From Steroidobacteraceae bacterium (GTDB taxonomy: Bacteria > Pseudomonadota > Gammaproteobacteria > Steroidobacterales > Steroidobacteraceae): a stretch of DNA of 28,410 bases. The stretch spans positions 1 to 28,410 of the forward strand of contig DATAHE010000283.1 of NCBI GenBank assembly GCA_036263355.1, read 5' to 3'. The position numbers and the translations under genes are program-made. The notes beneath the pieces were generated by a model. It had not been told where the DNA came from. It made no database searches and saw nothing but the letters and a program-made list of their open reading frames with translations. Every line of letters begins with the position of its first letter. Positions within the stretch are counted from its first letter, which is position 1. Positions 10,070 to 27,043 of this stretch are shown in pieces.

Positions 10070-10090
10070 AAGGAATTCCTCTTTATAAAT

Positions 10091-10158
10091 ATCAACACTC
10101 ATCACCAAAATCATCACCGCATCAACATCACATCAGCACCGGAGCGGAGGGCGGTGCT
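10091..10158 (-). other. Intercistronic hairpin followed by a TGAT-rich tract between epsE and epsF
   Basis: 7-bp stem AGCACCG/CGGTGCT (10135-10158) and 7 ATCA (sense TGAT) units in 10091-10135. Confidence 0.4.
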
Positions 10159-10171
10159 TCAAATCAGATCG

Positions 10172-10990: not shown

Positions 10991-12470
10991 GGGTGTCCTT
11001 GAATACAACTGCGACAGTCTGAAACAGAATTTTTATGTCGAACCACAATGACCAGTTGCACAGATATTTAAGATCGAACTCAATGCGCTTGGTCATCGTC
11101 ACCAGATCATCGCCGCCACGATAGCCATTCACCTGGGCCCAGCCCGTGATACCGGGTTTGACTTTGTGACGAATCATGTAGCTTGGAATCTGTTCGCGAT
11201 AACGTTCATTCACTGCGACAGCATGGGGACGTGGACCCACCATACTCATCGAACCGCCCAGCACATTCAAAAGCTGTGGCAATTCATCAAGCGAAGTACG
11301 ACGGATGAAAGCGCCGAACGGCGTGACACGACTATCGTTGCGCGTCACCTGCTTGTATTGATTGTCGCCATCTTCAGTGACCGACATGGAGCGAAATTTT
11401 CTGACCATGATTTCGCGACCATCCAGTCCATAGCGTCGTTGCTTGAATATGACGGGACCTGGTGAACTGAGTTTCACACCCAGCGCTACCATCAGGAACA
11501 AGGGCATCGTAATTGTTAGTGCTGTTAGTGATAGAACGATGTCACTGCAACGCTTCACCAGTCCGCCAACACCATAGAAGGGTGATTCGCAGATGGCGAT
11601 CAAAGGAATGCCACATAGCATTTCAACGCGCGCACCAATCAGATCAAAGGCACCGAGATCAGGAACGAAGTAAACAGAGGCCACTGAGTCCTGCAGTTCT
11701 TCCAGGAGATGCATCAATGCCGGATTGCGTGACAGTGGAAAGGTGATGTAGACAAGTTGAATGTTGTGCTTGCGTACATATGCGGCGATATCGGTCGTCG
11801 AACCGAGGCGTGCCAAGGAATGAAATGACCCCGGCGCCGCAGGGGTACTGCTGTCTTCGTCAATCTGGTTTCCAGAGGCGTCACCGGAGCGGCCGAAATG
11901 ACCATCGAAATAGCCCACACAGTTGATCATGAGTGAAGGCTGCGCTTCCAGCATCTGGCTGAGTAGTGCACCTTGTTCAGTTGCCCCCACAATCACTGCT
12001 GATCGTGCTGCCATGCGCCTGATGCTGACACCAAATAATGGCATGCATATTCCCGCTCGCACGGCAAACAATACAAAGGGTGTGAGCAGCACCCATGCGA
12101 TAAACGGTGCCTCTGCTACGTAGTGCCCCGTGCCCGATAAATACATCAGCAAACAGATGCCAATGCATATGACGCACCAGCGACTGAAAACATAGTTGAA
12201 TGATTTCAGTGTGAACGCGCCAAGGCCATCGAATGCAAATTTTGAAAAGTCGACAAGCTCTGCAACGGCGGTAAAGCCGATCACCGCAATCAGAAAGTAC
12301 GGTCCGAGTAATGGTTGATGCCACCACTGTAGACAGACCAGTAACACCAAGACAGTTGTAACGGGATATACCAGCGATTGAATGGCAATCATCAACGCAG
12401 AATTTCGCGAAGCCGCTTCCATTGGCAGCGACCCTGCGGTCTGCAATGCCGTGAATGAGTCATTGCGCAC
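10980..12470 (-). CDS. epsB: Undecaprenyl-phosphate glucose phosphotransferase (EpsB/WcaJ/GumD family priming transferase)
   Basis: Bac_transf motifs 'KRCSDIVLS', 'GPVIFKQRRYG', 'KFRSM', 'RRTSLDELPQL', 'GPRPH', 'KPGITGWAQVNGYRG' and 'DLKYLCNWSLWFD'. GTG start with GAGG RBS. Confidence 0.95.
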   Translation of the reverse strand: MRNDSFTALQTAGSLPMEAASRNSALMIAIQSLVYPVTTVLVLLVCLQWWHQPLLGPYFLIAVIGFTAVAELVDFSKFAFDGLGAFTLKSFNYVFSRWCVICIGICLLMYLSGTGHYVAEAPFIAWVLLTPFVLFAVRAGICMPLFGVSIRRMAARSAVIVGATEQGALLSQMLEAQPSLMINCVGYFDGHFGRSGDASGNQIDEDSSTPAAPGSFHSLARLGSTTDIAAYVRKHNIQLVYITFPLSRNPALMHLLEELQDSVASVYFVPDLGAFDLIGARVEMLCGIPLIAICESPFYGVGGLVKRCSDIVLSLTALTITMPLFLMVALGVKLSSPGPVIFKQRRYGLDGREIMVRKFRSMSVTEDGDNQYKQVTRNDSRVTPFGAFIRRTSLDELPQLLNVLGGSMSMVGPRPHAVAVNERYREQIPSYMIRHKVKPGITGWAQVNGYRGGDDLVTMTKRIEFDLKYLCNWSLWFDIKILFQTVAVVFKDTHAY

Positions 12471-12475
12471 TGAGA

Positions 12476-12874
12476 TTAACCTCGTTCAGCGTGTGCAATC
12501 AGCTCGGCACCGGCAGCCTGCGACAGCTTTGTCTCTGTGACACGATATGCGCGAGCGTTGAAGCGTTGCAGCGTGTTGAGATTGATGATGCGTGTTTCGG
12601 ACTGCGCCTTCTGATGACGACGCAGCTGCAGCACCACCAATACCACACCAGCTATCATTGCCAGCAACATATCCGACATGCGAAAGCTGTCAGGTTGATG
12701 TTGTGCTTCCAGTGCTGGCGCCAGCCTTTCCTGAATTGCCGTCACTGTTGTTGAAGCCTTGACTGCTGTGGGTGCTGTGCTCTCGGCAGATGCACACTCA
12801 ACCACGGCAAGCAGGGCAGAGCACGCAAGAACAAAAGAAACAATTGCACTATTCAACATGTTGAGTGACCGCAT
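12476..12874 (-). CDS. Small hypothetical membrane protein heading the eps operon (signal peptide, short spacer, TM plus RR, tail)
   Basis: GAGG RBS, hydrophobic N-terminus ending ASA-E, second hydrophobic segment MLLAMIAGVVLVVLQL followed by RRHQK. The stop lies 5 nt before epsB. Confidence 0.65.
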   Translation of the reverse strand: MRSLNMLNSAIVSFVLACSALLAVVECASAESTAPTAVKASTTVTAIQERLAPALEAQHQPDSFRMSDMLLAMIAGVVLVVLQLRRHQKAQSETRIINLNTLQRFNARAYRVTETKLSQAAGAELIAHAERG

Positions 12875-12971: not shown

Positions 12972-12989
12972 TGTGGGAGTTGTCTTACA
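12972..12989. promoter_or_regulatory. GacA/RcsB-like 18-bp box upstream of the eps operon
   Basis: TGTGGG-AGTTGT-CTTACA, about 100 bp upstream of the first operon gene. Compare the GacA/UvrY site TGTAAG-N6-CTTACA. Confidence 0.6.
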
Positions 12990-13242
12990 GTATGTTTTCT
13001 CTGTTTTGATGCGCACAACAATGCTGCTGCAACAAAGCGCAGCAAAAATTGTTTCAAACTTGAATTGATTTGGAGCAACGCGATTATTCATGCACTTATT
13101 GAGCACGTTTCATTTTTATGAAGTTGTTGTGCGATCAATAGTCAAGTGACATTTGATTCGCAAAATACATACACTCGATAGTTGGCAGTACATGCATGCG
13201 CAACTTTCTTGATGAGTCGCTATATGCCACCAATGTCGTGGC

Positions 13243-13260
13243 TGTCAGACAGTTCTTATA
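13243..13260. promoter_or_regulatory. Second GacA/RcsB-like box in the eps upstream region
   Basis: TGTCAG-ACAGTT-CTTATA. Confidence 0.45.
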
Positions 13261-13324
13261 AGAAGGTGGATGTTAATGACAGTCTGCAACCGAGTCAGCG
13301 CTCGGCTATCAAGCCATCAAGCAA

Positions 13325-14281
13325 TCAGTTTCCAGAATAACCGCCAATGATGGGCAGTATCTCGCCCGTGATGTAGCTGGAACATTGCGATGAGGCTAAA
13401 AACACAAAGGCTGGCGAAATCTCTTCTGGTTGCGCCGGTCGTTTCATTGGCACCTTGGCGCCGAATTGTGCAACCTTTTCACTCGGCGAGTCAGATGGAT
13501 TCAACGGCGTCCACACCGGTCCGGGCGCGACAGCATTGACGCGAATACCTCTGGGCACCAGATGCGAAGCAAGTGATCGCGTAAAGGCGTGAATGCCACC
13601 CTTGGTCATTGAGTAATCGAGCAGATGCCCGCTGCCGAGAATGCCTGTCACCGATCCGGTGTTCACGATGGCACTGCCGGGCTGCATGTAAGGAATGGCC
13701 GCCTGTGCCATGAAGAAGTATCCGTACAGATTCGTCTTGAGCGTGCGATCAAATTGCTCCACTGTCAGCGCTTCAAGTTGCTCGACATGTTGCTGAAACG
13801 CAGCGTTGTTCACCAGGATGTCGAGATGTTCGAATTCATCCATCGTCTTGCTGACCACTGTTTCGCAAAATGTTCTGTCGGTGACATCACCAGCGATCAA
13901 TAGACACTTACGACCTTCGGCTTCGACAGCACTGCGGGTAATCTCTGCATCTGCGCTCTCGCTTTGATACACCACCACAATGTTTGCACCTTCGCGAGCA
14001 AACAGAACGGCAACGGCGCGGCCAATGCCCGAATCGCCGCCGGTGATGATCGCCACTTTCCCTAATAACTTGTTAGAGCCCTGATAATAGGGCGCTTCAT
14101 ACATCGGACTTGGATCGAGCATGTGTTCCTTGCCGGGCTTTGATTGATGTTGCTTGGGAAACGGGGGCTCCGGATAGCGGCGCGCACCGGCTTGCATGGC
14201 AAAATCTTCGTCCTTCGAAGATTTTTGCTTTCCTTCCGTCGAAGAAGAATGCTCTTTAGCGGTGTGTGCTTTGGTGTCCAT
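13325..14281 (-). CDS. Short-chain dehydrogenase/reductase, YghA/YdaD (general stress protein 39)-like
   Basis: 'FPKQHQSKPG', 'YYQGSNKLLGKVAIITGGDSGIGRAVA', 'NNAA', catalytic YSMTK, 'IRVNAVAPGPVWT' and 'RPAQPEE'. Confidence 0.93.
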   Translation of the reverse strand: MDTKAHTAKEHSSSTEGKQKSSKDEDFAMQAGARRYPEPPFPKQHQSKPGKEHMLDPSPMYEAPYYQGSNKLLGKVAIITGGDSGIGRAVAVLFAREGANIVVVYQSESADAEITRSAVEAEGRKCLLIAGDVTDRTFCETVVSKTMDEFEHLDILVNNAAFQQHVEQLEALTVEQFDRTLKTNLYGYFFMAQAAIPYMQPGSAIVNTGSVTGILGSGHLLDYSMTKGGIHAFTRSLASHLVPRGIRVNAVAPGPVWTPLNPSDSPSEKVAQFGAKVPMKRPAQPEEISPAFVFLASSQCSSYITGEILPIIGGYSGN

Positions 14282-14385
14282 TTACTTTAAACGTCAGCGA
14301 TGAATAACTTGACTGGATTAAAGCATCCAAGAAATCACATCGATGTCGGCAAATCATCGAGTAAGTGGTAGTTACTGTCCGACTA

Positions 14386-14571
14386 TCATCCCGGCAGATG
14401 CTGCTTCTTCTCATTACCGTAATCGTCGGAAGGATGCGGCAACACAGGTATGTTTTCCGCGGGCTCTGGCGTTTCTGGCACCGGTTGCTCCTCAGCATCT
14501 GGTGTAGGGCGCGGGTCGTGCATCAATGACGCATATTCAAATGGCTCACACCGCAGTGGTTGGTACGACAT
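14386..14571 (-). CDS. Small Pro/Glu-rich hypothetical protein (61 aa)
   Basis: GGGAG RBS before ATG 14571. Translation MSYQPLRCEPFEYASLMHDPRPTPDAEEQPVPETPEPAENIPVLPHPSDDYGNEKKQHLPG. No family recognised. Confidence 0.35.
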   Translation of the reverse strand: MSYQPLRCEPFEYASLMHDPRPTPDAEEQPVPETPEPAENIPVLPHPSDDYGNEKKQHLPG

Positions 14572-14828
14572 GAAGTTTCTCCCAAGGTTGCGCATAGCAT
14601 CAAGCAGTGAAGTATTTGAAGTTGTCATCAATACGTGCATAACTGTCGTCGGCGGCAGACGTTAGAGCGTCATCATGCAGCTACATAAATGTGCTCCTGC
14701 CTTTACCTTGGGGTCGGATGATGCGGGTGTGCCCGTGGCTCAAGTTCGCCACCAGCATTGTGACCACTTTATAACCCGAGTGAATTGTCCGAGTAGTGCA
14801 TGACGCAACTGCCGAATGGCGACACGTC

Positions 14829-14856
14829 CTTATTTGGGCGACTTATTAGGGCGACT
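14829..14856. repeat. Tandem 13-bp direct repeat in a divergent intergenic region
   Basis: CTTATTTGGGCGA CTTATTAGGGCGA CT (one mismatch). Confidence 0.5.
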
Positions 14857-15102
14857 GGTTGGAAATCAGCTGCGTGTGATGTTGCGGTTTGCGCAACGTC
14901 TTGTGCTCGTCACCTTGATAACTGTAGACAACATCAATCAATTTCGCTGCAAGCACCTATTGCAAAGCGGCAACGACGAAGCATACTATCGGCCGTCACC
15001 TCACACATTCGTAATAAAGCAGCGTGTTGTTGCCTATGCTATTCTCGCGCTTGACTAATTATTTTGTCCTACAAGCTTGATCCACAGGTGATTATCTTGA
15101 AC

Positions 15103-15516
15103 ATGGAAAACGCTGCCAGTAAGACTGCCGCCTCTGTCATTAAATCTGTTCTGGTAGTTGAAGACGAACCAGTCACTTTAATGTATCTGTCCGACACGCT
15201 GCAGGAACTGGGGTTCAACGTCACGCAAGCCAATAATGCCACCGAAGCCATTCATGCTGCTTCGGATTGCCCCGGGTTGTCAGTTGCTTTTGTTGATCTT
15301 GGACTGCCTGACCTTAGCGGACTGGAATTGATTTCCGAACTGCGCAAGATGCAACCAGGATTAAACATCGTTATTGCATCCGGCTACGGCGAAATGGCCA
15401 AACGCGATCTGGACAATGCGGAAGACACCGACAATTTCACTGTCCTCACCAAGCCATACAATCAGGAAACCATCACTGAAATTCTCAGTGACCTTGGCGT
15501 GCTCGGTAACAACTAA
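15103..15516 (+). CDS. Single-domain response regulator (CheY-like receiver)
   Basis: VLVVEDE, AFVDLGLPDLSG (phospho-Asp), IASGY and LTKPY, with no output domain. ATG 15103 preferred over TTG 15064. Confidence 0.9.
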   Translation: MENAASKTAASVIKSVLVVEDEPVTLMYLSDTLQELGFNVTQANNATEAIHAASDCPGLSVAFVDLGLPDLSGLELISELRKMQPGLNIVIASGYGEMAKRDLDNAEDTDNFTVLTKPYNQETITEILSDLGVLGNN

Positions 15517-15563
15517 CGCTATTTTTATTCACCGTCGCTCCTTGTGTTATCGGACCGCTTGAA

Positions 15564-16955
15564 CTACAACCAGTAATTAATCAGGCGACTTGCTGACTCC
15601 TTCAGCTTTTCTCCCGCCGATCTCCGACGCCAGGTGTTGATGTCAATCTCCTTGCTTTGTTGCAGATCGGATAAATAGATTTCCTGCATGCGCGTGCCGA
15701 GCGATTCACTGACGATAATGGCAGTCACTTCATTGTTATGAAGAAAGCTGCGGTAGTCGAAGTTCGCTGAACCGATAATCGATACACTGCCATCGATGAC
15801 AGCGGTTTTGGCATGAAGTAATGCATCGGTGACTTCATACAGCCGCACGCCATGTTTCAGCAATGGCTCGTAACCCCCACGTGCTGCATAGAACACAATG
15901 CTGGAGTCTGTGAAGCTGGGGACCAATACGCGGACATCGACACCACGCGATACCGCAGCAATCAACGCATCGCGTAGTTCCGGCGGTGGTGAAAAGTAAG
16001 CCTGCGTAATCCACACCTGCTTTGACGCATGCTGAATTGCAGCAAGATAAGTGCTGTAAATGGGCTCTTTACGCTGCTTGACGCCAGTGCTGGCAACAGC
16101 AGATACAATATCGGCGCCAGCATTTTCCAGCGGTGGATAGTCGATATCTTTACTGTCATTCATTTCGCCATCCAGCGCCGCCCAGGTCTCAAAGAAGATC
16201 ATCTGGAACAGGCGAACGGCAGGACCTTCTATTTGCGCATCTGTATCACGCCAACCTTCGTTGATGCCACGCTCTGGTCCGGGATGTAACGAGGACTTCG
16301 ATGCATAGGTGCCACTGATGTTAAGGCCGCCAGTGAAGGCGATCTTGCCATCGACAATGAGCAGCTTGCGATGATCACGATTATTGAATTTCCAGAATGC
16401 CACGCTATGAAACGACAGCGGATTGAACTCCTTGACCAGCACACCGGCGTTGCGCATTTCATCGAATAGCGCATCCGATGAGGTCAGGCTGCCGATGGCG
16501 TCGAAGATCACACGGACACGCACGCCAGCACGGGCCTTGCTGATTAGTAGTGATGCGAAGTCTCGACCCAGTTTGTCATCAGAGAAAATATAGGTTTCAA
16601 CATTCACGCTGCGCGTTGCGCCTGCGATGGCGCGACGCAGATGCGCAAACGTATCCGGTCCATCCACCAGCGGTGTGACCTTGTTGCCAACCACCAGCGG
16701 TGAGTTGGTCTTTGCGCGCACGGCATCTACCAGTTGCTCAAGCTCATGACTGTGTGGAGACGCTGGATTGCCCGCAGCTTGAATGATTTCGCTGGATTTC
16801 TTTTCACTGAGCGCGCGTCCGCCCGCTACCACTGGAGCAACTTCTGCTTGGTGCTCCGGTCGATGATCAGAGAGCGTAGACAGGTCGGTGCAGGACCAAA
16901 GCGGGACGGCGATGCAACAGAGAATCAGGTGGTTTAAGAATCTATTTTTGCGCAT
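15564..16955 (-). CDS. cls: Cardiolipin synthase-like phospholipase D (ClsB/YbhO-like) with a possible lipoprotein signal
   Basis: Two HKD motifs (RDHRKLLIVDG, LLHAKTAVIDG), 'AFTGGLNI', 'WRDT', 'ITQAYFSP' and 'IGSANFDYRS'. N-terminus MRKNRFLNHLILCCIAVPLWSC. Confidence 0.9.
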   Translation of the reverse strand: MRKNRFLNHLILCCIAVPLWSCTDLSTLSDHRPEHQAEVAPVVAGGRALSEKKSSEIIQAAGNPASPHSHELEQLVDAVRAKTNSPLVVGNKVTPLVDGPDTFAHLRRAIAGATRSVNVETYIFSDDKLGRDFASLLISKARAGVRVRVIFDAIGSLTSSDALFDEMRNAGVLVKEFNPLSFHSVAFWKFNNRDHRKLLIVDGKIAFTGGLNISGTYASKSSLHPGPERGINEGWRDTDAQIEGPAVRLFQMIFFETWAALDGEMNDSKDIDYPPLENAGADIVSAVASTGVKQRKEPIYSTYLAAIQHASKQVWITQAYFSPPPELRDALIAAVSRGVDVRVLVPSFTDSSIVFYAARGGYEPLLKHGVRLYEVTDALLHAKTAVIDGSVSIIGSANFDYRSFLHNNEVTAIIVSESLGTRMQEIYLSDLQQSKEIDINTWRRRSAGEKLKESASRLINYWL

Positions 16956-17149
16956 GGTTATTCATTTGCGTTCGTCTTCAGCGTCCCAGACGCAAGAATT
17001 CATTAGCGCGACGTGTCTGCAATGTCAGTGCTGCACTAAACAGCATGTGAGGAAGTGATGACGTAAGGGTGCAGATAACGGCCTGGTTTTAAGTAATGCA
17101 CCGCTTATTCCGCTATCCCGGGAAACACCAAGAGTACTAATTTACAATC

Positions 17150-17167
17150 TGTAAGAATCATCCTACA
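17150..17167. promoter_or_regulatory. Best GacA/RcsB-like box, in the cls / response-regulator divergent promoter
   Basis: TGTAAG-AATCAT-CCTACA, one mismatch to TGTAAG-N6-CTTACA. The inner TAAGAATCATCCTA is 12/14 identical to the RcsAB box TAAGAATATTCCTA. A weaker copy, TATAAG-ATGTGG-CCTGCG, lies at 17173-17190. Confidence 0.65.
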
Positions 17168-17354
17168 GTTATTATAAGATGTGGCCTGCGTAAACATTGG
17201 GCCGCGCAACGAACACTATCGGACGTGACCAAAGTGGTTATTTTCCTTGTCAGACTTATGCTGGCAAGTTGGCGCAAGTCATCAGGGAAAAATCTTGACG
17301 CTTGTAAGCCGCGGATCGGCCAACTAATCAGTTATTCAAAAACGGTAATTCAAA

Positions 17355-17987
17355 ATGCCCAAGATACTCATAGCAGATGATCATGCAGTTGTCAGAAAAG
17401 GCTTCAAGCAACTGCTGATGGAAGATCGCGCCCAGTTCGAAGTGGGTGAAGCGTGTACAGGTCGCGAAACACTGGATCGACTGCGCGAACAGAAATGGGA
17501 CCTGCTGGTGCTTGACATCAACATGCCTGATCGCAGTGGTATTGATATCCTGCGGCAGATACATGCTGCCTATCCTGGCATGCGTGTGCTAATTCTCAGC
17601 GCATTTCCGGAGAGACAATATGCAGTCAATGTGCTGCGCTCAGGCGCGAATGGATATCTGAACAAGGAAATGGCGCCTGAAGAGTTGCTGACAGCGGTCA
17701 AGACGGTACTGAGTGGCCGACGCTATGTCAGCGTTGCGCTTGCTGAGTTGCTGGTCACCGAGCTGGACAACGACAGCGAGAAACCAGCACATATGCAATT
17801 GTCGGAACGCGAATTCCAGATCTTCTGCAAGCTGGCAAGCGGCACATCGGTTTCCGCCATTGGTGCGGAGCTGTGTTTGTCAGTGAAGACAATCAGCACC
17901 TATCGCTCAAGACTGATGGAGAAGATGGGCTTCAAAAGCAATGCTGACATCACGGCGTATGCGTTACGCAATCAATTGATCAATTAA
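17355..17987 (+). CDS. NarL/LuxR-family DNA-binding response regulator (UvrY/GacA-like)
   Basis: 'ILIADDHAVVRKG', 'VLDINMPDRSG', 'GANGYLNK' and HTH 'LSEREFQIF...LSVKTISTYRSRLMEKMG'. Confidence 0.95.
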   Translation: MPKILIADDHAVVRKGFKQLLMEDRAQFEVGEACTGRETLDRLREQKWDLLVLDINMPDRSGIDILRQIHAAYPGMRVLILSAFPERQYAVNVLRSGANGYLNKEMAPEELLTAVKTVLSGRRYVSVALAELLVTELDNDSEKPAHMQLSEREFQIFCKLASGTSVSAIGAELCLSVKTISTYRSRLMEKMGFKSNADITAYALRNQLIN

Positions 17988-18099
17988 TCAATTGTCCAGT
18001 TTGATCGTCTGAACTTGGGGTGTGGTGTAAACTGCGGCATCTAATCTAGTGTCGTATTGTGATAACAACAGGAGTGCGCTCGGCAGCGTTACCAATTTG

Positions 18100-18483
18100 A
18101 TGCGTGAGCTTAAGGTACTGTTAGTCGAAGACTCTCCGTTACTTTCGGACCGTATGATGGAATTGCTTTCCGAGATGGAAGGCATTGTATCCGTGGGCGC
18201 AGTCAGCACCGAGTCTGCAGCCATCAATGCCGTCGATACGCAACAACCAGATGTGGTGCTGCTGGATTTGCGACTGAAGGAAGGCACAGGCTTTAGCGTG
18301 ATGCGGCACCTCAAGCATGTCAGTAAGCAGCCTGTGGTGATTGTGATCACCAACTATGCGTTGCCACAGTATCGTCGTGAAGCGGAAGCGCTGGGCGCCC
18401 GTTTTTTTCTCGACAAGAGCCAGGAATTCGATTTGATTCCCGCGATGCTGGCAACGTTACAGATAGAGCAGACCGCACGCTGA
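18100..18483 (+). CDS. Single-domain response regulator (receiver)
   Basis: 'KVLLVEDS', 'VVLLDLRLKEGTG', 'VITNY' and 'FFLDKS'. The start could be 18049 (GTG) or 18100 (ATG). Confidence 0.88.
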   Translation: MRELKVLLVEDSPLLSDRMMELLSEMEGIVSVGAVSTESAAINAVDTQQPDVVLLDLRLKEGTGFSVMRHLKHVSKQPVVIVITNYALPQYRREAEALGARFFLDKSQEFDLIPAMLATLQIEQTAR

Positions 18484-18571
18484 ATAAGCGCCGTCGAAGG
18501 CAAGGCTTTACTGCGTCTGATTGTGCGTGTTCGCGACAGCGCGTGAAGCTGGCAACAATTCCGTAACTGCG

Positions 18572-19945
18572 TTACTCCAGCGTTGCCAATTGATTGGCCA
18601 AGTCTGTTCCCAGCCATACGATTACGCGCGTGCCATGCGGAAAGACAGAGATGATCTGGAAGGTACCGCCAATGGTCTGCATACGGTACTTCATGCTCAG
18701 TAATCCGTGTGAACCACTGGCGCGTCGCGTCGTATTCTCAAAGCCAACGCCGTCGTCTTCAATCGTTAACACCAGCTCTTGATTGGTACCTTTCAAACTG
18801 ACTTTAACGGTTGTAGCGCGCGCGTGCTTGACGATGTTGGTCATTGTCTCCTGCGCCACACGGAAGATGGCAATCGCAATATTCAAATCAACTTTCAGTT
18901 CTTCCTCTGGAAAATCTGCTTCAAGTACGAGATTGGCCTGTGCACAGGTTTCTTCACATTGCCATCTGATGGCAGCGACCAGTCCCAGGTTATCGAGCAG
19001 GGTGGGACGCAATTCTTCAATGACGCGGCGTTTCAATTCAACGCCGGCACTCAATGCAGTCTGAATACGTTGCCAGCGCACCTGGATATCGGGTGCACTG
19101 AAATCAAATTTCTTGGCAAGCTGTGAAAGATCCATCTTCATAGCGACCAGCAGGCCGCCGAGTTCATCATGCAGTTCTCTGGCAAGTCGCAGCTTTTCAT
19201 CTTCGCGCACACTCAGCATGTGCTTGGAAAGATTCGTTAACTCTGCAGTGCGCTCTTCCACCATGCTATTCAGTTTCATTGCCGCAGCGTTGCGTCGTTC
19301 AATTTCCCAGATGACCAGCAGGCCGATTGCCAGCAATAAAAGGATATTCAGCAGCGTCGTTCCGCCTGCCACATACCGGTTTACCTTGACTTGCAATTGC
19401 CAGAAATCAATATCGCTAAAGACACGTTGGCGTTCCCGTGAGCGCATACTTTCAAACGTCGCGCGTATCTCTTCCATCCAGTGCAAATCAAGACGGGTTT
19501 TCACCTGGCGTAATGCTTCAGCGTCGCCGGCTACACGTTGCGCTTCTTCAATTCCGCTTTGCATTTCTGCAAATTTGCTGTCGATGTTGTTCCTTGCCTT
19601 GTTCAGATACGCCAGTTCGTCATTTTCGATTTTTCCATACTGCGATATCAGCGTGTTCAGTGTTTTATTGGCGCGGCTTTTCGCTTCATTGAAGGTCACC
19701 AGAAAACCGGGATCAAGTGTCAGCAAAAATCCACGCTGCGCACTTTCTGCATCGGCAACGGCATAAATCATTTCGGCAAGTTCGCGCAGTCTTTCCTGAC
19801 GACCACGAATGCCTGCGGCCAGCTCCACAGTGTAAGAGCGGCGATATTCAATAACGCCATAGCCAATCAACACCAGGGTAATGGCCGTCAGCACAGCAAT
19901 AACCACGTAGCGCCGGTTAAAGCCGGGGAATAGAAAATTAACCAT
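18572..19945 (-). CDS. Membrane sensor histidine kinase, CHASE3 + HisKA_3 + HATPase_c
   Basis: Two TM segments flank the CHASE3-like 'VADAESAQRGFLLT'. H-box 'RLARELHDELGG', 'ELRPTLLDNLGL', N-box 'QETMTNIVKHARA', 'IEDDGVGF' and 'HGLLSMKYR'. Confidence 0.93.
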   Translation of the reverse strand: MVNFLFPGFNRRYVVIAVLTAITLVLIGYGVIEYRRSYTVELAAGIRGRQERLRELAEMIYAVADAESAQRGFLLTLDPGFLVTFNEAKSRANKTLNTLISQYGKIENDELAYLNKARNNIDSKFAEMQSGIEEAQRVAGDAEALRQVKTRLDLHWMEEIRATFESMRSRERQRVFSDIDFWQLQVKVNRYVAGGTTLLNILLLLAIGLLVIWEIERRNAAAMKLNSMVEERTAELTNLSKHMLSVREDEKLRLARELHDELGGLLVAMKMDLSQLAKKFDFSAPDIQVRWQRIQTALSAGVELKRRVIEELRPTLLDNLGLVAAIRWQCEETCAQANLVLEADFPEEELKVDLNIAIAIFRVAQETMTNIVKHARATTVKVSLKGTNQELVLTIEDDGVGFENTTRRASGSHGLLSMKYRMQTIGGTFQIISVFPHGTRVIVWLGTDLANQLATLE

Positions 19946-20161
19946 GGTAACTAACCATCGGACGACCCATTAGTTGGCTCACTGTCACCATGCTGTTTCT
20001 CTCTTTATTTCAGCAAGCAATTCAACAAACATTCTTTGGCATCCTGCATTTATGGAAACCGTATTACGGAAGACCATTTACTGAAATCCGTTACGAAATC
20101 ATAGGGAAGAAGTATAGGGACAACAATGTGTCGCCGCTATGCGGATAAATAACGTGACCTA

Positions 20162-20179
20162 TGTGAGTGCTGTCCTACC
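20162..20179. promoter_or_regulatory. GacA/RcsB-like box upstream of the DUF1328-ferritin genes
   Basis: TGTGAG-TGCTGT-CCTACC, 110 bp before the DUF1328 ATG. Confidence 0.5.
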
Positions 20180-20289
20180 ACAAATTGTTGTAGCAACCGA
20201 CGGCCCGCTTTTCGGCAGTAACAGAGCATACAAAGCGCCCGACTACTCACAAAGATCCACTTGCTTAGGATCTTTCAACGAAGGAGATC

Positions 20290-20457
20290 ATGATGCTTTA
20301 TTATGCTGTTGTGTTTCTGGTGATTGCATTGGTTGCCGCGCTGTTTGGTTTCACCGGTATTGCAGTGGGTGCGGCCAGCATTGCCAAGATCCTGTTCATG
20401 GTGTTTCTCGCATTTGCAGTGGTGGCATTCATCATGTCTCTTGCACGCAGGGCCTGA
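20290..20457 (+). CDS. DUF1328 (UPF0391, YtjA-like) small membrane protein; absent from the ORF track
   Basis: AAGGAG RBS. Manual translation [55 protein letters not shown] (55 aa) has the family signature '[13 protein letters not shown]...AKILF'. Confidence 0.93.
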
Positions 20458-20459
20458 CC

Positions 20460-21047
20460 ATGGCTATTGCCACACCACAAAACACGCCTGCCAATGGGAA
20501 CGCGCAATTGCCTGCGCTCAGCTCTGCTGCAGAGCTGCGCGCACGCGCCATGCAAAGTCTGGACGATGGCGCGGTGACGCAAAGCTATGCTGCTGATCGC
20601 GAGAAAGTAATTGCGCTGCTCAATCAGGCATTGGCGACGGAGCTGGTGTGCGTGCTGCGTTACCGACATCATTATTTTGTGTCCGAAGGTCTGCCCGCAG
20701 AAGCGATCAAGAAGGAATTTCTTGAACATGCCGAGGAAGAGCAGAGACATGCTGATCAACTGGCGGAACGCATTATTCAGCTGGGTGGAGATCCTAACTT
20801 CGACCCGAAAGGACTGGCAGAGCGGAGTCATGCCGAGTATGGCAATGGCAAGTCGCTGCTCGAATACCTTCGTGATGATCTGATCTCCGAGCGCGTGGCC
20901 ATCGAGTTCTATACTGAAGCGATTCAGTATATTGGCAGTAATGATCCCACCACGCGGCGCGTGCTTGAATCTATTCTGAGTGCGGAAGAAGAACATGCTG
21001 AGGAGATCGCCAGCATGTTGGCGAGTGTTTATCACCGTAAGGAATAG
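20460..21047 (+). CDS. Bacterioferritin-like ferritin-family protein (non-heme type)
   Basis: Ferroxidase ligands TELVCVLRY, EEEQRHAD, SERVAIEFY and EEEHAE. ATG lies 2 nt after the DUF1328 stop; the track's 20139 start is an artefact. Confidence 0.88.
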   Translation: MAIATPQNTPANGNAQLPALSSAAELRARAMQSLDDGAVTQSYAADREKVIALLNQALATELVCVLRYRHHYFVSEGLPAEAIKKEFLEHAEEEQRHADQLAERIIQLGGDPNFDPKGLAERSHAEYGNGKSLLEYLRDDLISERVAIEFYTEAIQYIGSNDPTTRRVLESILSAEEEHAEEIASMLASVYHRKE

Positions 21048-21182
21048 CAACAAGGATTAGTGTCGACTGCTCGAGTTGGATGTGACTACTCGCGGGCTTG
21101 TGTGTATCGATACGGTTACGTATACGAACAGCGTCACCAAAGTTTCAATAGCTTGTCAGACAACGTTACAAGAAGTACAACC

Positions 21183-22373
21183 ATGTCAAACGCAGTGCTG
21201 CCCGTGCCACCCAGGAACAATCAGGACAGGAAGAGTATTTCATCGCTTATCCAGGCTTCGGACATTCCGGGTTGGTCGATCCGGTTGATCGCGTGGGCGG
21301 TGATTGGCGTCGTTCTTTACATTGGTAAACCAGCATTCGCACCGATGCTATTCGCGATGTTGCTGGCGCTGTTGCTATCTCCCGTAGTTGATTTCTTTGA
21401 GCGATATCGAGTACCACGCATGGCTGCGTCGCTGGGCGTGGTGCTTGTGCTGATTGCATTACTCGTGGTCATTGTCGATGCAGCATGGGGGCCCACACAA
21501 CGCTGGGTGGAGAACGCACCCGAAGTACTGCAAACGATTGAGAAAAAAGTCCGGCCGGTGCAGTTGATTGTCAAACGTATCGAATCCATCACCACGCGTG
21601 CGACCACTATTGCCACCGGGCCAGTTAGTACCACCGGAACAGATAAAGCCGTCACGCCCGCGGAAATCAATCCGTTGAGTACGGGACGCGTGATTCTTAT
21701 CGATACAGTCACTATCTCGATTCTCACCCTGTTTCTGTTAATGGGTGGCAATAGTACTTTGCGTGCCGTTGAACGCGCTTCGCAGCAGGGTGGTGGCAGT
21801 TACAAATCCATGAAGATTATCGAATCGGTACGCGCCGAATTGAGCAGATACTATTTAATGCTCACGGCCATCAACATCTGCCTGGGCGTTGCCGTCGCAT
21901 GTGCCATGGCTTTATGGGGACTGCCGAGCCCGTGGTTATGGGGCATCATGGCAGGTGTACTTAACTTTATTCCCTATGTGGGACCCTCTATCAGTCTTGC
22001 AGTGTTATCAATTGTGTCACTGGTAACCTTTGATGGATATGGCACGGCGATTGGTGTTGCAAGCACCTTTCTCTGTTTCACCACCATCGAGGGCCAGTTG
22101 ATTCAGCCATTGCTGATTGGCTTTCGCCTTAATCTCAATCCCATTGTGCTATTCGTTTCCATCTGGCTGGCTGGATGGTTCTGGGGTGTTGCAGGTGTAT
22201 TCCTCATCACGCCATCACTGGTGATCCTGAAAGAAATTGCCTCGATGCAGGATGGCGATTCTTTGTTAAAGGCATTGTTGATTAGTCATTATCAAGTACC
22301 ATTGACCCGTTATCGCATCAGGAAAGGTTTGGTTAAAACCGCGAGCGGAGTTAGCCCGGCTGTTAGCAAGTAG
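21183..22373 (+). CDS. AI-2E family (UPF0118) transporter
   Basis: 'PMLFAMLLALLLSPVVDF', 'GVLNFIPYVGP', 'EGQLIQPLLIG', 'LNPIVLFVSIW' and 'WGVAGVFLITP'. ATG 21183 preferred. Confidence 0.92.
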   Translation: MSNAVLPVPPRNNQDRKSISSLIQASDIPGWSIRLIAWAVIGVVLYIGKPAFAPMLFAMLLALLLSPVVDFFERYRVPRMAASLGVVLVLIALLVVIVDAAWGPTQRWVENAPEVLQTIEKKVRPVQLIVKRIESITTRATTIATGPVSTTGTDKAVTPAEINPLSTGRVILIDTVTISILTLFLLMGGNSTLRAVERASQQGGGSYKSMKIIESVRAELSRYYLMLTAINICLGVAVACAMALWGLPSPWLWGIMAGVLNFIPYVGPSISLAVLSIVSLVTFDGYGTAIGVASTFLCFTTIEGQLIQPLLIGFRLNLNPIVLFVSIWLAGWFWGVAGVFLITPSLVILKEIASMQDGDSLLKALLISHYQVPLTRYRIRKGLVKTASGVSPAVSK

Positions 22374-22409
22374 TCGCTGCGTGCAGATCTTAGATTCAAG
22401 CAGCGACTA
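22371..22409 (+). terminator. Perfect 10-bp inverted repeat starting at the AI-2E stop codon
   Basis: TAGTCGCTGC-(19 nt)-GCAGCGACTA. There is no U-tract, so it may be a stabilising hairpin rather than an intrinsic terminator. Confidence 0.35.
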
Positions 22410-22786
22410 GAGCGGCCCTCATCACACGCCAATAGACCAGGCGCGCTAGAGCTCATGCCAAGAGACTGGATGAAGCGCTTTATCAACGCGCTGCACTCGC
22501 GTCAATCTTATTAAGAACATCAACCGAAGGATTTTCGCTTTGCTTGAACGATGCTAGAGGGTTGTGGGCTCAGCTAACTTCAAACTACTCGTCGTTGTTA
22601 ATTCAAGCGAAGCGTGAATCTGTTCATGCTTCTATACGACTGCTCATCCCCACAACATTCAGAGAAGGATATCTTCCTCTGGTCGAAATGACATGGTGGA
22701 TATTATGAGGTCATACATTAACTTCCACTTGGTCTTGTCATTTCGAGAAACGCGAGAACTCTATTCTTTGGAAACTGAACATGCAT

Positions 22787-22811
22787 AAAAAAGCCGGGCA
22801 TTGCCCGGCTT
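22787..22811 (-). terminator. Rho-independent terminator of the BON gene
   Basis: Minus strand AAGCCGGGC-AAT-GCCCGGC-TTTTTT, about 25 nt after the stop. Confidence 0.85.
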
Positions 22812-22835
22812 CTTATCAATCAACTGTAGAGTTGA

Positions 22836-23366
22836 TTAACGGCCAACTTTGAGGCCATTTTCAACTTTTGCAACGCCGTTGATGTTCTTGGCTACATCTT
22901 CAGCAGCATCCTTCTCAGCAGAGCTGGATACGAAACCGCCCAGTGATACCACGCCCTTGTAGGTCTTCACTTCGATTTGGTAAGCCTTGGTGCGTGAGTC
23001 GGCGATCAGTGCGGATTTTACTTTTGCAGTAATTTCAGCATCGCTCAGCGCATTGCCCATGGTGCGTTCGCCGCTGCGAACTTGCAGATTGTTCTGCACG
23101 GACTTAACGCCAGTGACAGTGCGTGCTGCACTTTCTGCTTCAGACTTTGCATCAGCAGTTTCAACAAAGCCATTCAATTGAACAACACCGTTACGGGTGT
23201 CAACATCGATCTGATGTGCTTTGGTGGTCTTGTTTTCAATCAGTGCGCTCTTCACCTTCGCTGTGACGGCTGCATCGTCGATTGCGTTTTCTGCCATCGC
23301 GGACAAGCTCACACTGGAAATCACAGCCACCGCCAAGCATGTAACTATCTTCTTTGCGTAATTCAT
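22836..23366 (-). CDS. osmY: OsmY-like periplasmic protein with two BON domains
   Basis: Signal peptide ending AMA-E. Two repeats 'DDAAVTAKVKSALI...IDVDTRNGVVQLNGFV' and 'SDAEITAKVKSALI...IEVKTYKGVVSLGGFV'. Confidence 0.92.
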   Translation of the reverse strand: MNYAKKIVTCLAVAVISSVSLSAMAENAIDDAAVTAKVKSALIENKTTKAHQIDVDTRNGVVQLNGFVETADAKSEAESAARTVTGVKSVQNNLQVRSGERTMGNALSDAEITAKVKSALIADSRTKAYQIEVKTYKGVVSLGGFVSSSAEKDAAEDVAKNINGVAKVENGLKVGR

Positions 23367-23504
23367 AAAATCTGTACCTCAATTTGAAAGTAAGAGTCCA
23401 TATGCCGGAGCAATGGGGTTCGTGAATTGAACCATTCAAATGAATGGCGCCGTTACTGTAGTGATGATGCCTTCACGCGCTTATCGGTGACCCACACAAG
23501 CGAC

Positions 23505-23522
23505 TGTCAGTTAAGTACTACC
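23505..23522. promoter_or_regulatory. Weaker GacA/RcsB-like box upstream of the BON gene
   Basis: TGTCAG-TTAAGT-ACTACC (one mismatch to TGTNRG-N6-CYTAY). Confidence 0.35.
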
Positions 23523-23558
23523 GATTAAGGGCTTCGGAAATTACTGAGTGACGATCAG

Positions 23559-24644
23559 TTAATGCGGCATGGAGTAGTGAGCGGTGTCTTGCACTGCCGC
23601 AGCAGTGACAGGCCCGACATGATGTTCGATACATGCATAGTCTGTGATCACCTGATGCACAAAGCCCAGCTTGTTGATAACGGGTTCGGATAATTTATAG
23701 GGATACTCGCCACTGACGCCTGCGCTACGAAGTGCGGCATTTAAGTACTCGCAGAGCTCTGGCCACGTCGAAGTAATCTGGCTGTAAAATGCGCCGTTGC
23801 TTACTGGGGTCATCTGCTGTTGAGTGAGATTTTCATTGCTAACCGATATTCGCCACGCAGCTGCAGTATCCAGTGCGTCGCGAATATGAAGATAGTAAGC
23901 CCATGTCTCCGCCCAGTCTTCCCACGGATGCGAGCTGGCATAGCGACTCACGTATTCATCGCGCCAATCCTCTCTGTTGGTTGCCTTGTTGTAATAGCTT
24001 TGCAACGCCTGATCATAATTCTGGCGCTCATCACCAAAACACTGTCGATACGGTTCAAGAAACGCAGAGTTGGCGATCAATTGATCCCAGTAGAAATGAC
24101 CTACCTCGTGTCGCAAATGTCCCAGCAAGGTTCGATAAGGCTCATTCAGTGAGGCACGGCGTTGTTCACGTCGCACGTCATCGGCTTCAGAAATGTTAAC
24201 GGTGATGACGCCTGATGCATGCGCCGTTAATACCGCTGGCTGATCGGGCAGTGGAGTCAGAAAGTCGAATGCAAGGCCGGTTGCAGGCTGCTGAATTCTA
24301 TCCGGCGGTGATAAACCCAATGACCTGAGCGAATACAGCAGTGAACGTTTTGCGTGTTCGAGTTTTTTCCATGCCTCACGGTTCTCGGCATCGTGTTGCG
24401 GCGGAATGGTTCGAGTGTAACGGCATGATGGACACAGTGAGCTGCCACCGTTCGATGCAGGGTCAACAATCCAGTTGCAGGACAATATATCGCGATTAAC
24501 GCAAGGTACTGCCGTAGGCAGATTCCACATGGAAACCATGCTGTCAGTGTTGAACACATAACCGAGTTCGGTTTCGCAATGCCAGCACGACAGTGCATCA
24601 AAGGATAATCGTGACTGGCATTTAGGGCAGCTGTAATGTTTCAT
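23559..24644 (-). CDS. Putative zinc-binding metallopeptidase (N-terminal zinc ribbon plus Peptidase_Mx-like domain)
   Basis: CPKC...CWHC zinc ribbon, 'EPYRTLLGHLRHEVGHFYW' (HExxH) and 'YASSHPWEDWAETWAYYLH'. Start probably ATG 24644. Confidence 0.85.
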   Translation of the reverse strand: MKHYSCPKCQSRLSFDALSCWHCETELGYVFNTDSMVSMWNLPTAVPCVNRDILSCNWIVDPASNGGSSLCPSCRYTRTIPPQHDAENREAWKKLEHAKRSLLYSLRSLGLSPPDRIQQPATGLAFDFLTPLPDQPAVLTAHASGVITVNISEADDVRREQRRASLNEPYRTLLGHLRHEVGHFYWDQLIANSAFLEPYRQCFGDERQNYDQALQSYYNKATNREDWRDEYVSRYASSHPWEDWAETWAYYLHIRDALDTAAAWRISVSNENLTQQQMTPVSNGAFYSQITSTWPELCEYLNAALRSAGVSGEYPYKLSEPVINKLGFVHQVITDYACIEHHVGPVTAAAVQDTAHYSMPH

Positions 24645-24764
24645 CGCTATTGCTATAACAATCCACCTGGGAGAGAAAAAAAGCACTGCAACGCAGCGGT
24701 TGCAGTGCTTCAAAGTCAGCATTTATCCAAATGCTGAGGTACCCACATCAACCGAACTCAGTGA

Positions 24765-25385
24765 CTAGAAACGCCACGCGGCACCTAACCAGAACGCATC
24801 TGACTGGGTGTTGGGCAATTCCAGTTTTTCATATTCAGCACGCAACTCCAGGCGATGCAATACCACAAAGGACAAGCCGCCGCCCCACATAAAATCATTT
24901 CTGCTATGAGAAGTACGGATATCGGGTCCTGGGGAATCAAAGTCTACACGCGTATCAACGTTGTAGTAGTACTCGCCAGCTTTGGCAAACAGCTCTACAG
25001 GGCCGAGTGGCGCGCTGAGAATGACCGATGGTGCAAAGCCGTTCATCTTTACACGATAGTTACCATTGCTGCCGGTGGCCGAGAAAGAATCTTTGGATTC
25101 ACCGAAATCAATATACGATGCTTCAAGACGCAACCATGGCATGAAGCGATAACCTGCAAAGATCTTCCAGGAGTTGTTATCGGAATGGCGAATATCCTGC
25201 ACAGCGTCATCAACGCCATCTAGATGCTTGATGCCCGCATTGTATCGTCCAATACCTGCGCCAATGTAAGGCCCTGATGGATTGCTGGAACTTGAATCTG
25301 AATCATAGGCGCTGGCACTTAGTGGTGCAGCGATCGCCACGGTCGCCAAGCTTGCAGCTATCAATGTTCGCAATAAAGTCTTCAT
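24765..25385 (-). CDS. Outer-membrane 8-stranded beta-barrel protein (OmpA-like transmembrane domain)
   Basis: GAGG RBS and signal peptide ending ASA-Y. 'GPYIGAGIG', 'KIFAGYRF', 'LRAEYE' and terminal Phe (WRF). Confidence 0.9.
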   Translation of the reverse strand: MKTLLRTLIAASLATVAIAAPLSASAYDSDSSSSNPSGPYIGAGIGRYNAGIKHLDGVDDAVQDIRHSDNNSWKIFAGYRFMPWLRLEASYIDFGESKDSFSATGSNGNYRVKMNGFAPSVILSAPLGPVELFAKAGEYYYNVDTRVDFDSPGPDIRTSHSRNDFMWGGGLSFVVLHRLELRAEYEKLELPNTQSDAFWLGAAWRF

Positions 25386-25594
25386 TTCATACCCCTCGCA
25401 GTTAAGAAATAGTTGAACGACTGCAGTCATTCCCGAAACATGTTGTGGTGATTAGCTTGTAATTCAGCGAAAGCACTCTCAATGCCTGTACGCCGAAGTT
25501 TGCTGTAGGAGCTATTGTTGCAGTGCGAAGACCTACAGGAATATTTGCTAACCCATTCATCTCAATGGGTATCGCTGTTGTGTTACTGAAAAGA

Positions 25595-25612
25595 TGTCGG
25601 AGATTGCCTACG
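25595..25612. promoter_or_regulatory. GacA/RcsB-like box in the OMP / DUF2934 divergent region
   Basis: TGTCGG-AGATTG-CCTACG, overlapping a further half site CGTAGG. Extra half sites TGTAGG and CCTACA lie about 60-90 bp to the left. Confidence 0.45.
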
Positions 25613-25972: not shown

Positions 25973-26084
25973 GATGCATCGTGTCGGCACGCGCTTACTT
26001 TCCAATTGGAAAGCGCCGGATGAACTGTAGCGTAGTAATGAATACTATTTCGCCACTTGAAATTCATCTGACAGAGACTCAGCG

Positions 26085-26510
26085 ATGACTGCCAAATATG
26101 AACATGATGACATTGCTCGAATTGCCTATCGATCCTGGCTTGATCGTGGGCAACCAGATGGATCTCCTGAAATAGACTGGTACTACGCATTGTCGGTAGT
26201 CACCAATCCAGAAGAGATTCGTCCAGTGCCTTTCGGCAATTTCGATACGCGTTCATCAGATGAGCAGTCACTTGATGAGGCTGAAAATCAGGCGGGTAAT
26301 TTGTCGCTTGATGGCCAGGGCATTCGCAACGATGGCATGCAGGACGAAGGCATGCGCAATGACACCGATCTTGCCAGCGATGGCATTACCGATAACGAGA
26401 CCACACGTCGCTCTGACCAGTTCAACGTTGATCAAAAGGCCAGCCCGGTACCCCGTTCGCGAAAGAAGTCAGCCGATGGCGGGGACAAACAAAGCGGGCG
26501 TATGCGTTGA
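26085..26510 (+). CDS. DUF2934 domain protein with an acidic disordered tail
   Basis: N-terminal 'IARIAYRSWLDRGQPDGSPEIDWYYA' matches the DUF2934 pattern (I..rAY..W...G.p.G....DW..A). Confidence 0.75.
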   Translation: MTAKYEHDDIARIAYRSWLDRGQPDGSPEIDWYYALSVVTNPEEIRPVPFGNFDTRSSDEQSLDEAENQAGNLSLDGQGIRNDGMQDEGMRNDTDLASDGITDNETTRRSDQFNVDQKASPVPRSRKKSADGGDKQSGRMR

Positions 26511-26584
26511 TGGCTACGGCGGCAATACTCGCTATCCAGTTTCGTTCCTAATATTTATTTCTCAACCCAGTAAGGAAAACCACG

Positions 26585-27043
26585 ATGACCACTAGCAAAT
26601 ATTTCAATTCCCGCATTTTCACTTCATTGTTCGCATTGAGCCTGGCACTTGGCATTACTGCCTGCAATCAGCAGAAGTCACCCGCCGAAGTCGAGCATGA
26701 TGTAGCAAAGGCAGAACAGAAAGAAGCAGAAAAAGTTTCAGAAGCACGCAGTGATGCTGCCAGCACGGTCAGTGCTGCGAATCAGGATGTTGCCGAAGCA
26801 CAGCATGATGCACGTTCCGACGTGAACGATGCAATGGCTGATGCGAACAAGGACATCGCTGAAGCACGCGCCAAGGCCGATAAGGTTGCTGCAGACCAAG
26901 CCTATAACGTTGCCGAAGAGAAGTGCAAAGCATTGCCTTCCGACCAGATCGGTCCATGCAAAGACCGCGCGAAGGCAGATCGTGATGCCACCAAGGCACG
27001 CATTGATGCTGACTTGAAGGCTGCAAAGAATCACAACAAATAA
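26585..27043 (+). CDS. Alanine-rich helical lipoprotein with 11-residue repeats
   Basis: AAGGA RBS, lipobox ITA-C27, repeats DVAEAQHDARS/DVNDAMADANK/DIAEARAKADK, and Cys pair EKC...GPC. Confidence 0.85.
   Translation: MTTSKYFNSRIFTSLFALSLALGITACNQQKSPAEVEHDVAKAEQKEAEKVSEARSDAASTVSAANQDVAEAQHDARSDVNDAMADANKDIAEARAKADKVAADQAYNVAEEKCKALPSDQIGPCKDRAKADRDATKARIDADLKAAKNHNK

Follow-up and report, generated by a model that had tools for sequence, protein, structure and literature searches.

A predicted GacA-like operator conserved from an uncultured Steroidobacteraceae bacterium to Cupriavidus and Ralstonia, and its candidate NarL-type regulator

Response regulators of the UvrY/GacA family, the partners of the BarA/GacS kinases, have been reported to bind the inverted repeat TGTAAG-N6-CTTACA (PMC3171408), and the VsrAD system of Ralstonia solanacearum, with its exopolysaccharide (EPS), cold tolerance and peroxide tolerance phenotypes (PMC11960443), offers a parallel in phenotype to the system described here. 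We analysed a 28,410-nucleotide stretch of DNA (the window) from contig DATAHE010000283.1 (C283 of the assembly G000) of a metagenome-assembled genome (MAG) of an uncultured Steroidobacteraceae bacterium (3.18 Mb in 623 contigs, 86% complete). An earlier note, made from the letters of the window alone, had described a recurrent 18-bp palindrome of the GacA/RcsB type (hereafter the box) that links an EPS operon to stress genes, and had proposed that the NarL-type regulator encoded at 17355 binds to it. Our comparisons within this genome and with its relatives give good support to the box as a real and evolutionarily conserved predicted operator, within a system of a familiar type that would work in an ordinary way, and they point to this NarL/FixJ-type regulator as its most likely binder.

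As a DNA site, the box appears closest to the GacA/UvrY box: both are 18-bp inverted repeats with the same half-site core and a 6-nucleotide spacer, and the pattern found here, TGTNRG-N6-CYTACA, includes the published TGTAAG-N6-CTTACA (PMC3171408). The window regulator also shares a recognition helix of the form KT[VI]x[ST]YRxR with Escherichia coli UvrY, and its best NCBIfam match is the UvrY/SirA/GacA model (NF007018). However, it scores 152.7 bits with this model, against a cut-off of 280, and is 31% identical to E. coli UvrY, so that it is not an orthologue. Further differences concern its presumed cognate kinase, which combines CHASE3, HisKA_3 and HATPase_c domains without receiver or HPt domain, whereas BarA and GacS are unorthodox kinases (HisKA plus receiver plus HPt), the lack of linkage to uvrC, and the genes that follow the boxes, which are about 30-40 protein-coding genes here rather than a few Csr/Rsm small RNA (sRNA) genes.

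The likeness to the Rcs system is mostly one of function, since each has a NarL-family regulator linked with envelope and stress genes and with an operon for exopolysaccharide; over its inner 14 bp (TARGA-N4-TCYTA), the box also resembles the RcsAB box as given in the earlier note. By contrast, the window regulator reaches only 59.7 bits with the RcsB model (NF008098, cut-off 235), it is 25% identical to RcsB, and the two helices diverge after KTIS, where RcsB continues with SQKKSAMMK. The window encodes no RcsC/RcsD-type hybrid kinase, phosphotransferase, RcsF or RcsA. The EPS link, too, turned out not to be conserved in relatives. The third parallel is DevR/DosR-DevS of Mycobacterium, with its autoregulated NarL-type regulator, small stress proteins and palindromic boxes, and DevR is also the best solved-structure match of the window regulator (3c3w, E = 4.6e-27). 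The kinase sensor is CHASE3 here but GAF there, the box sequences differ, and the tandem boxes at fixed spacing that are a DevR/DosR feature were not seen, no offset within 80 bp being preferred among relatives' sites (top count 4 of 185). Judged by sequence score, kinase type and target type, the system lies outside both the Gac and the Rcs families. The name VsrD is carried by none of 120 Ralstonia-type regulator homologues among the matches listed, of which the named ones come from Cupriavidus, R. wenshanensis and R. mannitolilytica, and no VsrD sequence was compared. Literature searches on the half-sites, on DUF1328 with a response regulator and on CHASE3 with NarL/HisKA_3 returned no published characterisation of this system.

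The box in the window and across the genome

The pattern TGTNRGN6CYTAY matched the window seven times, whereas 100 dinucleotide shuffles gave 0.21 matches on average and 3 at most; the seven matches are six sites, the palindromic one at 17150 being counted on the minus strand too. All five boxes that had been listed before (12972, 13243, 17150, 20162 and 25595) are present, a sixth one at 25982 was not listed, and the chance calculation that accompanied them was right, at 1/131,072 per position and about 0.43 expected matches. For comparison with relatives, we fetched 80 loci with relatives of the regulator (1.38 Mb in total), in which regulator identity is 57-87% in MAGs of Steroidobacteraceae and other Gammaproteobacteria (one carries the label Nitrosomonadales) and falls to 56% in Cupriavidus and Ralstonia. 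The regulator orthologues also assign the window to Steroidobacteraceae. When sites were scored with a symmetric weight matrix made solely from relatives' sites, the six window sites reached 12.4-22.2 bits and no other window position reached 6 bits. The window is thus dense in predicted operators, with six sites of at least 12 bits versus about 0.3 expected per 28 kb. Two weaker sites that had been proposed as well, at 23505 (OsmY) and 17173, scored 5.2 bits; about three positions per window score equally well by chance, and both were rejected as background.

The claim that the boxes are intergenic is true of all six sites once an open reading frame (ORF) of 302 aa at 20139-21047 (plus strand) is replaced by the DUF1328 and ferritin-like genes. 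This ORF is an artefact, corresponding to an over-extended ferritin-like gene with a true start near 20460, so that naive ORF calling would hide the 20162 operator inside "coding" DNA. The DUF1328 gene lies upstream of the ferritin-like gene, in a different frame.

Over the whole genome, the pattern had 34 matches versus 47.6 expected by composition, and 24 of the 34 were intergenic, while intergenic DNA makes up 10.6% of the genome. With the window contig excluded, there were 18 intergenic and 9 coding matches, whereas 300 permuted patterns of the same composition gave means of 4.15 intergenic (standard deviation 2.66) and 38.8 coding matches. An equal frequency in coding DNA, which the earlier note had named as evidence against an operator, is therefore not what was found. 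The relatives-only matrix gave the same picture in this genome, with 27 intergenic versus 8 coding sites of at least 12 bits and 43 versus 29 of at least 10 bits. When the spacer was varied from N2 to N11, enrichment was seen at N6 alone, both in this genome (24 intergenic matches versus 1-7) and in the 1.38 Mb of orthologous loci (123 matches versus 1-10 for other lengths).

The consensus is TGTAGGA-N4-TCCTACA, looser in this low-GC genome, where it reads TGT[ACG][GA]G[A/C]-N4-T-C[CT]TACA genome-wide. One half-site is far better conserved than its partner, positions 7 and 12 display a weak A/T preference, flanking positions are uninformative, and spacers and flanks vary from site to site. An A5/C14 mismatch is found in 37 of 105 unique sites and 43 are fully pairable, showing that the arms do not covary. 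Since enrichment is restricted to N6, flanks are uninformative and arms do not covary, the box is predicted to be a protein-binding inverted repeat, neither an RNA hairpin nor a repeat element. One might still see in it a chance product of a degenerate post hoc pattern, an RNA hairpin or a dispersed repeat, considering that the pattern was drawn from the same five sites, that its genome total lies below expectation and that a terminator scan flagged two boxes as hairpin-like. We find this extremely improbable, and refuted as far as computation allows. The rest of the genome, the 80 orthologous loci and 60 family genomes (see below) are independent data that reproduce the enrichment and remove the worry about a post hoc pattern; matches are enriched in intergenic and depleted in coding DNA; and beyond the N6 restriction and the lack of covariation, the unconserved flanks and spacers reveal no repeat family, and no Rfam match was found in the window or in 19 site-bearing contigs.

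Conservation in relatives and co-occurrence with the regulator

In the loci of relatives, 185 sites reached at least 12 bits, and 122 of these were no more than 350 bp ahead of the orthologue of some window gene. The box preceded the DUF1328 gene in 31 of 32 loci and the kinase gene in 53 of 63, both including Cupriavidus and Ralstonia, and in Cupriavidus necator it lies between the kinase gene and the DUF1328 gene in an arrangement identical to that of the window. It was also found upstream of 41 of 82 regulator orthologue copies, of the ferritin-like gene in 9 of the 30 loci where this is the first gene, of cls in 5 of 11 loci and of orf152 in 3 of 8. For OsmY (1/21), the outer-membrane protein (OMP) gene (0/10), the peptidase gene (0/7) and the short-chain dehydrogenase/reductase (SDR) gene (0/6), it was rare or absent. 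The conservation in orthologous promoters that the earlier note had suggested checking is thus found for DUF1328, kinase and regulator, but not for EPS, OMP and OsmY. Down to Cupriavidus and Ralstonia, half-sites are constant and spacers variable. The three signalling genes also keep their order (regulator, receiver-only gene, kinase), with the receiver-only gene present in 74 and the kinase gene in 64 of the 80 loci.

An independent comparison used 60 genomes of the family, which were grouped by presence of the regulator without using the motif, and in which the strict pattern TGTNRGN6CCTACA was counted against its reversed control. There were 58 motif versus 29 control matches in the 19 genomes with an orthologue (at least 61% identity), 28 versus 15 in the 15 genomes with a homologue of 46-55% identity, and 20 versus 50 in the 26 genomes with neither, so that the motif exceeds its control solely in regulator carriers (86 versus 44 with the regulator, 20 versus 50 without). 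The co-occurrence of regulator and motif gave a Mann-Whitney p of 2e-4, which is overstated because the sampled genomes are related. Many of the matches in carriers are found either 80-300 bp ahead of the regulator gene or some 2 kb past it, where DUF1328 is situated. Two genomes of the same genus (G023 and G059), both reported as 100% complete, have no regulator homologue at E<=1e-40 and zero strict-motif matches, which makes the module look like an accessory island even within a genus. At the class level (150 genomes), motif excess was seen in 4 of the 9 genomes that have a homologue (43-51% identity) and also in several genomes without close homologue; these homologues are too distant, and the association is unclear there. 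The unpublished genome G098 carries no weight in any claim made here.

Separately, one genome of the class-level sample (G115) contains the identical 18-mer TGTCAGCGCCAACCTACA at three loci (Table 1), each time as two inverted copies some 87 bp apart. This resembles a repeated element and not an operator, and it indicates that repeats can inflate raw motif counts.

Candidate binder, targets and promoter architecture

The regulator combines a Response_reg domain (Pfam, 1.2e-29) with a GerE helix-turn-helix (HTH) domain (1e-15), and its D8, D9, D54 and K104 (acidic pair, Asp, Lys) are invariant in an alignment with UvrY, RcsB and NarL. Its recognition helix, LSVKTISTYRSRLMEK, is almost invariant among orthologues down to Cupriavidus, and the helix of E. 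coli UvrY, LSPKTVNSYRYRMFSK, is closer to it than that of RcsB or NarL. Among the nine GerE-domain proteins of the assembly, the KT[IV]S[ST]YRxR helix is unique to the window regulator, which also obtains the highest NF007018 score, the cut-off being reached by none of the nine. Together with the conservation of the box at the regulator and kinase genes down to Cupriavidus and with the way in which the motif tracks the regulator, this unique UvrY-like helix makes the NarL-type protein at 17355 the best candidate binder of the box, and probably an autoregulated one, as had been proposed.

Alternatively, the operator could be real and bound by another NarL/LuxR protein, either a GacA/UvrY protein missing from the assembly or a paralogue, with the 17355 system being a target only. 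The box does fit the published GacA/UvrY box (PMC3171408), and a CsrA homologue is encoded in this genome (C108:1567-1722, minus strand, 91 bits), so that a Gac/Csr-like cascade could exist; besides, the assembly is incomplete and some class-level genomes without close regulator homologue display a motif excess. We nevertheless judge such a binder unlikely, since no GerE protein of the assembly scores better as UvrY than the window regulator, the UvrY-like helix is found in it alone and the motif follows it in the 60 family genomes. Moreover, no Csr/Rsm RNA was matched by Rfam in the window (E<=1) or in 19 other site-bearing contigs (gathering score), and no GGA-rich, sRNA-like region was found downstream of the sites.

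Returning to the window regulator as the binder, its conserved core of predicted targets would consist of the operon that encodes it, the gene of the kinase and the DUF1328-ferritin operon, of which the last had been proposed before and is the best conserved. The operator at 20162 lies 110 nt ahead of the DUF1328 start codon. The regulon had been seen as a local one; with about 27-43 intergenic sites across the genome, it is likely to be genome-wide and to include roughly 30-40 promoters. Genes facing sites of at least 10 bits in this genome encode an HlyD-type membrane-fusion protein, a CBM48/alpha-amylase glucan enzyme, a circularly permuted ATP-grasp protein, DUF4398 and DUF4398-OmpA lipoproteins, PAS/GAF and HAMP-repeat hybrid kinases, Big_5 secreted proteins, TonB, GGDEF-EAL, AsmA, DsbA, subtilase, PilZ and MBL-fold proteins, giving the predicted regulon an envelope, signalling and storage-glucan flavour. 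In 20 regions fetched around strict boxes from three other genomes (G009, G030 and G050), a box precedes an orthologue of the HAMP hybrid kinase (85% identity) by 140 bp, and boxes also adjoin the CBM48 gene, a cls paralogue (G009) and the DUF4398/OmpA operon. Such target orthologues indicate that the regulon is genome-wide and partly conserved. In G030, an EPS-like cluster has a box on each of its flanks.

The remaining targets proposed in the earlier note fared unevenly. The cardiolipin-synthase-like gene (cls) shares the strongest box with the regulator (195 bp to the cls start and 188 bp to the regulator start, in a divergent region), but fewer than half of the cls loci of relatives have one, so that its control seems partly conserved. 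The OMP gene does have a strong box 165 bp away; none of the ten OMP loci of relatives has one, however, and this box could equally serve the plus-strand ORF that starts 97 bp away on its other side. OsmY finds no support as a target, the sequence at 23505 being at background level and a site being found in a single relative.

Some of the promoters have an additional element. In the window it reads CCGACGGC and follows the 20162 operator at a distance of exactly 17 nt, and CCGAC(T/G)GC is kept in the DUF1328 and ferritin promoters of relatives and in a few others, 17 nt past the better-conserved half-site CCTACN. Of 365 oriented flanks, 25 had CCGAC at this offset, versus at most 5 at neighbouring offsets. 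This constant distance indicates that operator and core promoter stand in a fixed geometry, as would fit activation from a site that overlaps the -35 region, and activation seems likelier than repression in general. The element is possibly a -10-like part of the core promoter, and it might hint at an alternative, non-sigma-70 promoter. Scans of four intergenic regions for sigma-70 promoters and terminators stayed at shuffle level.

CGAC-type -10 elements are typical of extracytoplasmic function (ECF) sigma factor promoters. One could then propose that the CCTACA right half and the CCGAC 17 nt further on are the -35 and -10 elements of an ECF-like promoter, and that the palindrome is in part promoter architecture. 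The fixed offset, which is found in the window at DUF1328 and in several other promoters, the resemblance of CCGAC to the ECF-type CGAC and the unequal conservation of the two half-sites fit this proposal. It leaves unexplained that CCGAC accompanies only about 14% of the sites and is absent from almost all others in this genome, that the left half-site is kept at a strict N6 and many sites are perfect palindromes, that sites occur in both orientations relative to genes as well as in divergent regions, and that the motif co-occurs with the regulator; besides, there is no sigma-factor gene among the window genes. We thus give it a low probability, lower than that of a different NarL/LuxR binder.

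The reading that we consider probable on these comparisons is that the box is the operator of the NarL/FixJ-type regulator, which would control the conserved core plus a wider set of promoters. Besides the relatedness of the sampled family genomes and the class-level excess in genomes without close homologue, several points weigh against it. A box of at least 12 bits lies within 350 bp of just half of the regulator orthologues. With an assembly that is 86% complete, a second regulator with the same helix could be absent from it. The CCGAC found 17 nt downstream in some promoters implies that part of the signal may be core-promoter architecture. Lastly, the EPS, OMP and OsmY sites are not conserved in relatives: at the EPS operon, which had been proposed as a target and does have a strong box 98 bp upstream of its first ORF, plus a weaker one 369 bp upstream (65 bp downstream of the SDR gene), a box was present at just 3-4 of 29 priming-transferase homologue loci (about 4.3 kb each). 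Since these homologues are only 40-52% identical and may be paralogues, this absence is weak evidence, and a lineage-specific control of the EPS operon in this genome is plausible.

Under the mechanism that we propose, the membrane kinase would sense a signal through its CHASE3 domain and phosphorylate the regulator at Asp54, while the receiver-only protein encoded at 18049-18483, whose gene is probably co-transcribed with that of the regulator, would probably modulate the phosphate flow; it may be a phosphate sink or a connector in a three-protein module. A dimer of the phosphorylated regulator would then bind the inverted repeat, with one half-site per HTH, and control the regulator operon together with the kinase gene and the DUF1328-ferritin operon divergent from it. 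Beyond this core, it would act on envelope, signalling and glucan genes and on a cls-like gene, and in this genome on the EPS operon and the DUF2934 cluster. The functions of these candidate targets suggest envelope, osmotic or desiccation stress as the signal.

On a broader scale, and more tentatively, these three parts (CHASE3-HisKA_3 kinase, GacA-like NarL regulator and receiver-only protein) may form a widespread module common to Steroidobacterales and Burkholderiales. Such a module would have the DNA specificity of GacA but act directly on protein-coding stress, envelope and polysaccharide targets, without Rsm/Csr RNAs, and with some composite promoters (box, 17 nt, CCGAC) that would maybe need an alternative sigma factor. 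It would then be a mobile "stress island" of soil bacteria whose presence varies within a genus. We hold this wider picture to be somewhat doubtful as a whole.

For a two-component system that is common in soil Gamma- and Betaproteobacteria, the analysis thus proposes an operator, a regulator and a core regulon in a concrete form that experiments can test. With a Ralstonia-type homologue as query, thousands of proteins were found at E<=1e-40, many of them automatically annotated as "UvrY". Labels of "UvrY/GacA" and matches to the GacA box outside Pseudomonas and enterics can denote a different system with direct protein-coding targets. Since the module is found in the genetically tractable Cupriavidus, experiments on the prediction need no culture of the organism behind the MAG. 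Its links with DUF1328, ferritin-like, cls and glucan genes suggest a role in envelope, osmotic or desiccation stress, together with exopolysaccharide production in this lineage.

Feature map

Table 1. Predicted operators, associated elements and genes of the window, and the repeated 18-mer of genome G115
Feature	Position	Strand	Remarks
Operator, strongest (TGTAAGAATCATCCTACA)	17150-17167	palindromic	22.2 bits; TGTAAG-N6-CCTACA
Operator	20162-20179	plus	12.4 bits; between kinase gene (minus) and DUF1328 gene (plus)
Operator	12972-12989		19.5 bits; upstream of first EPS-operon ORF
Operator, second and weaker for EPS	13243-13260		13.0 bits
Operator, ambiguous target	25595-25612		17.7 bits; between OMP gene (minus) and 87-aa ORF (plus)
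Operator, sixth site	25982-25999	plus	13.8 bits; 86 bp upstream of DUF2934 gene
CCGACGGC element	20197-20204	plus	Downstream of 20162 operator
EPS biosynthesis/export operon	3-12874	minus	Glycosyltransferases, acyltransferase, Wzz/GNVR, Poly_export, Bac_transf priming enzyme (Pfam)
132-aa ORF	heads EPS operon	minus	ORF listing
SDR gene	13325-14281	minus	Pfam
Receiver-only protein, 150 aa	15064-15516	plus	Pfam
Cardiolipin-synthase-like PLD gene (cls)	15564-16955	minus	Pfam; candidate target sharing 17150 operator
NarL/FixJ-type response regulator	17355-17987	plus	Pfam Response_reg and GerE HTH; proposed binder
Second receiver-only response regulator, 144 aa	18049-18483	plus	Pfam Response_reg
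CHASE3-HisKA_3-HATPase_c sensor histidine kinase	18572-19945	minus	Pfam; presumed cognate kinase
DUF1328 gene, 55 aa	20290-20457	plus	Best-conserved candidate target operon
Ferritin-like gene	20460-21047	plus	Same operon as DUF1328
AI-2E transporter gene	21060-22373	plus	May extend DUF1328-ferritin operon
BON/OsmY gene	22836-23366	minus	Pfam
Zn peptidase gene	23559-24722	minus	Pfam
OMP beta-barrel gene	24765-25430	minus	Pfam
87-aa ORF	starts 25709	plus	ORF listing
DUF2934 gene	26085-26510	plus	Pfam
DUF2934 gene and 152-aa ORF (orf152)	26085-27043	plus	Candidate targets of 25982 operator
DUF2127 gene	27176-27643	minus	Pfam
GGDEF fragment	27941-28408	minus	Pfam
TGTCAGCGCCAACCTACA pairs, G115	C1:773944-774048, 996419-996523, 1524936-1525040		Resembles repeated element, not operator

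Between the SDR gene and cls, the plus strand at 14800-15516 encodes an 84-aa ORF without Pfam match, followed by the 150-aa receiver-only regulator. Upstream of the OMP gene, at 25503-25538 (74-108 bp from the gene), the half-sites of the box return in another inverted repeat, CTGTAGG-N22-CCTACAG, with a spacer of 22 instead of 6 nucleotides, which may form a hairpin or else offer separated half-sites, for looping or for two dimers.

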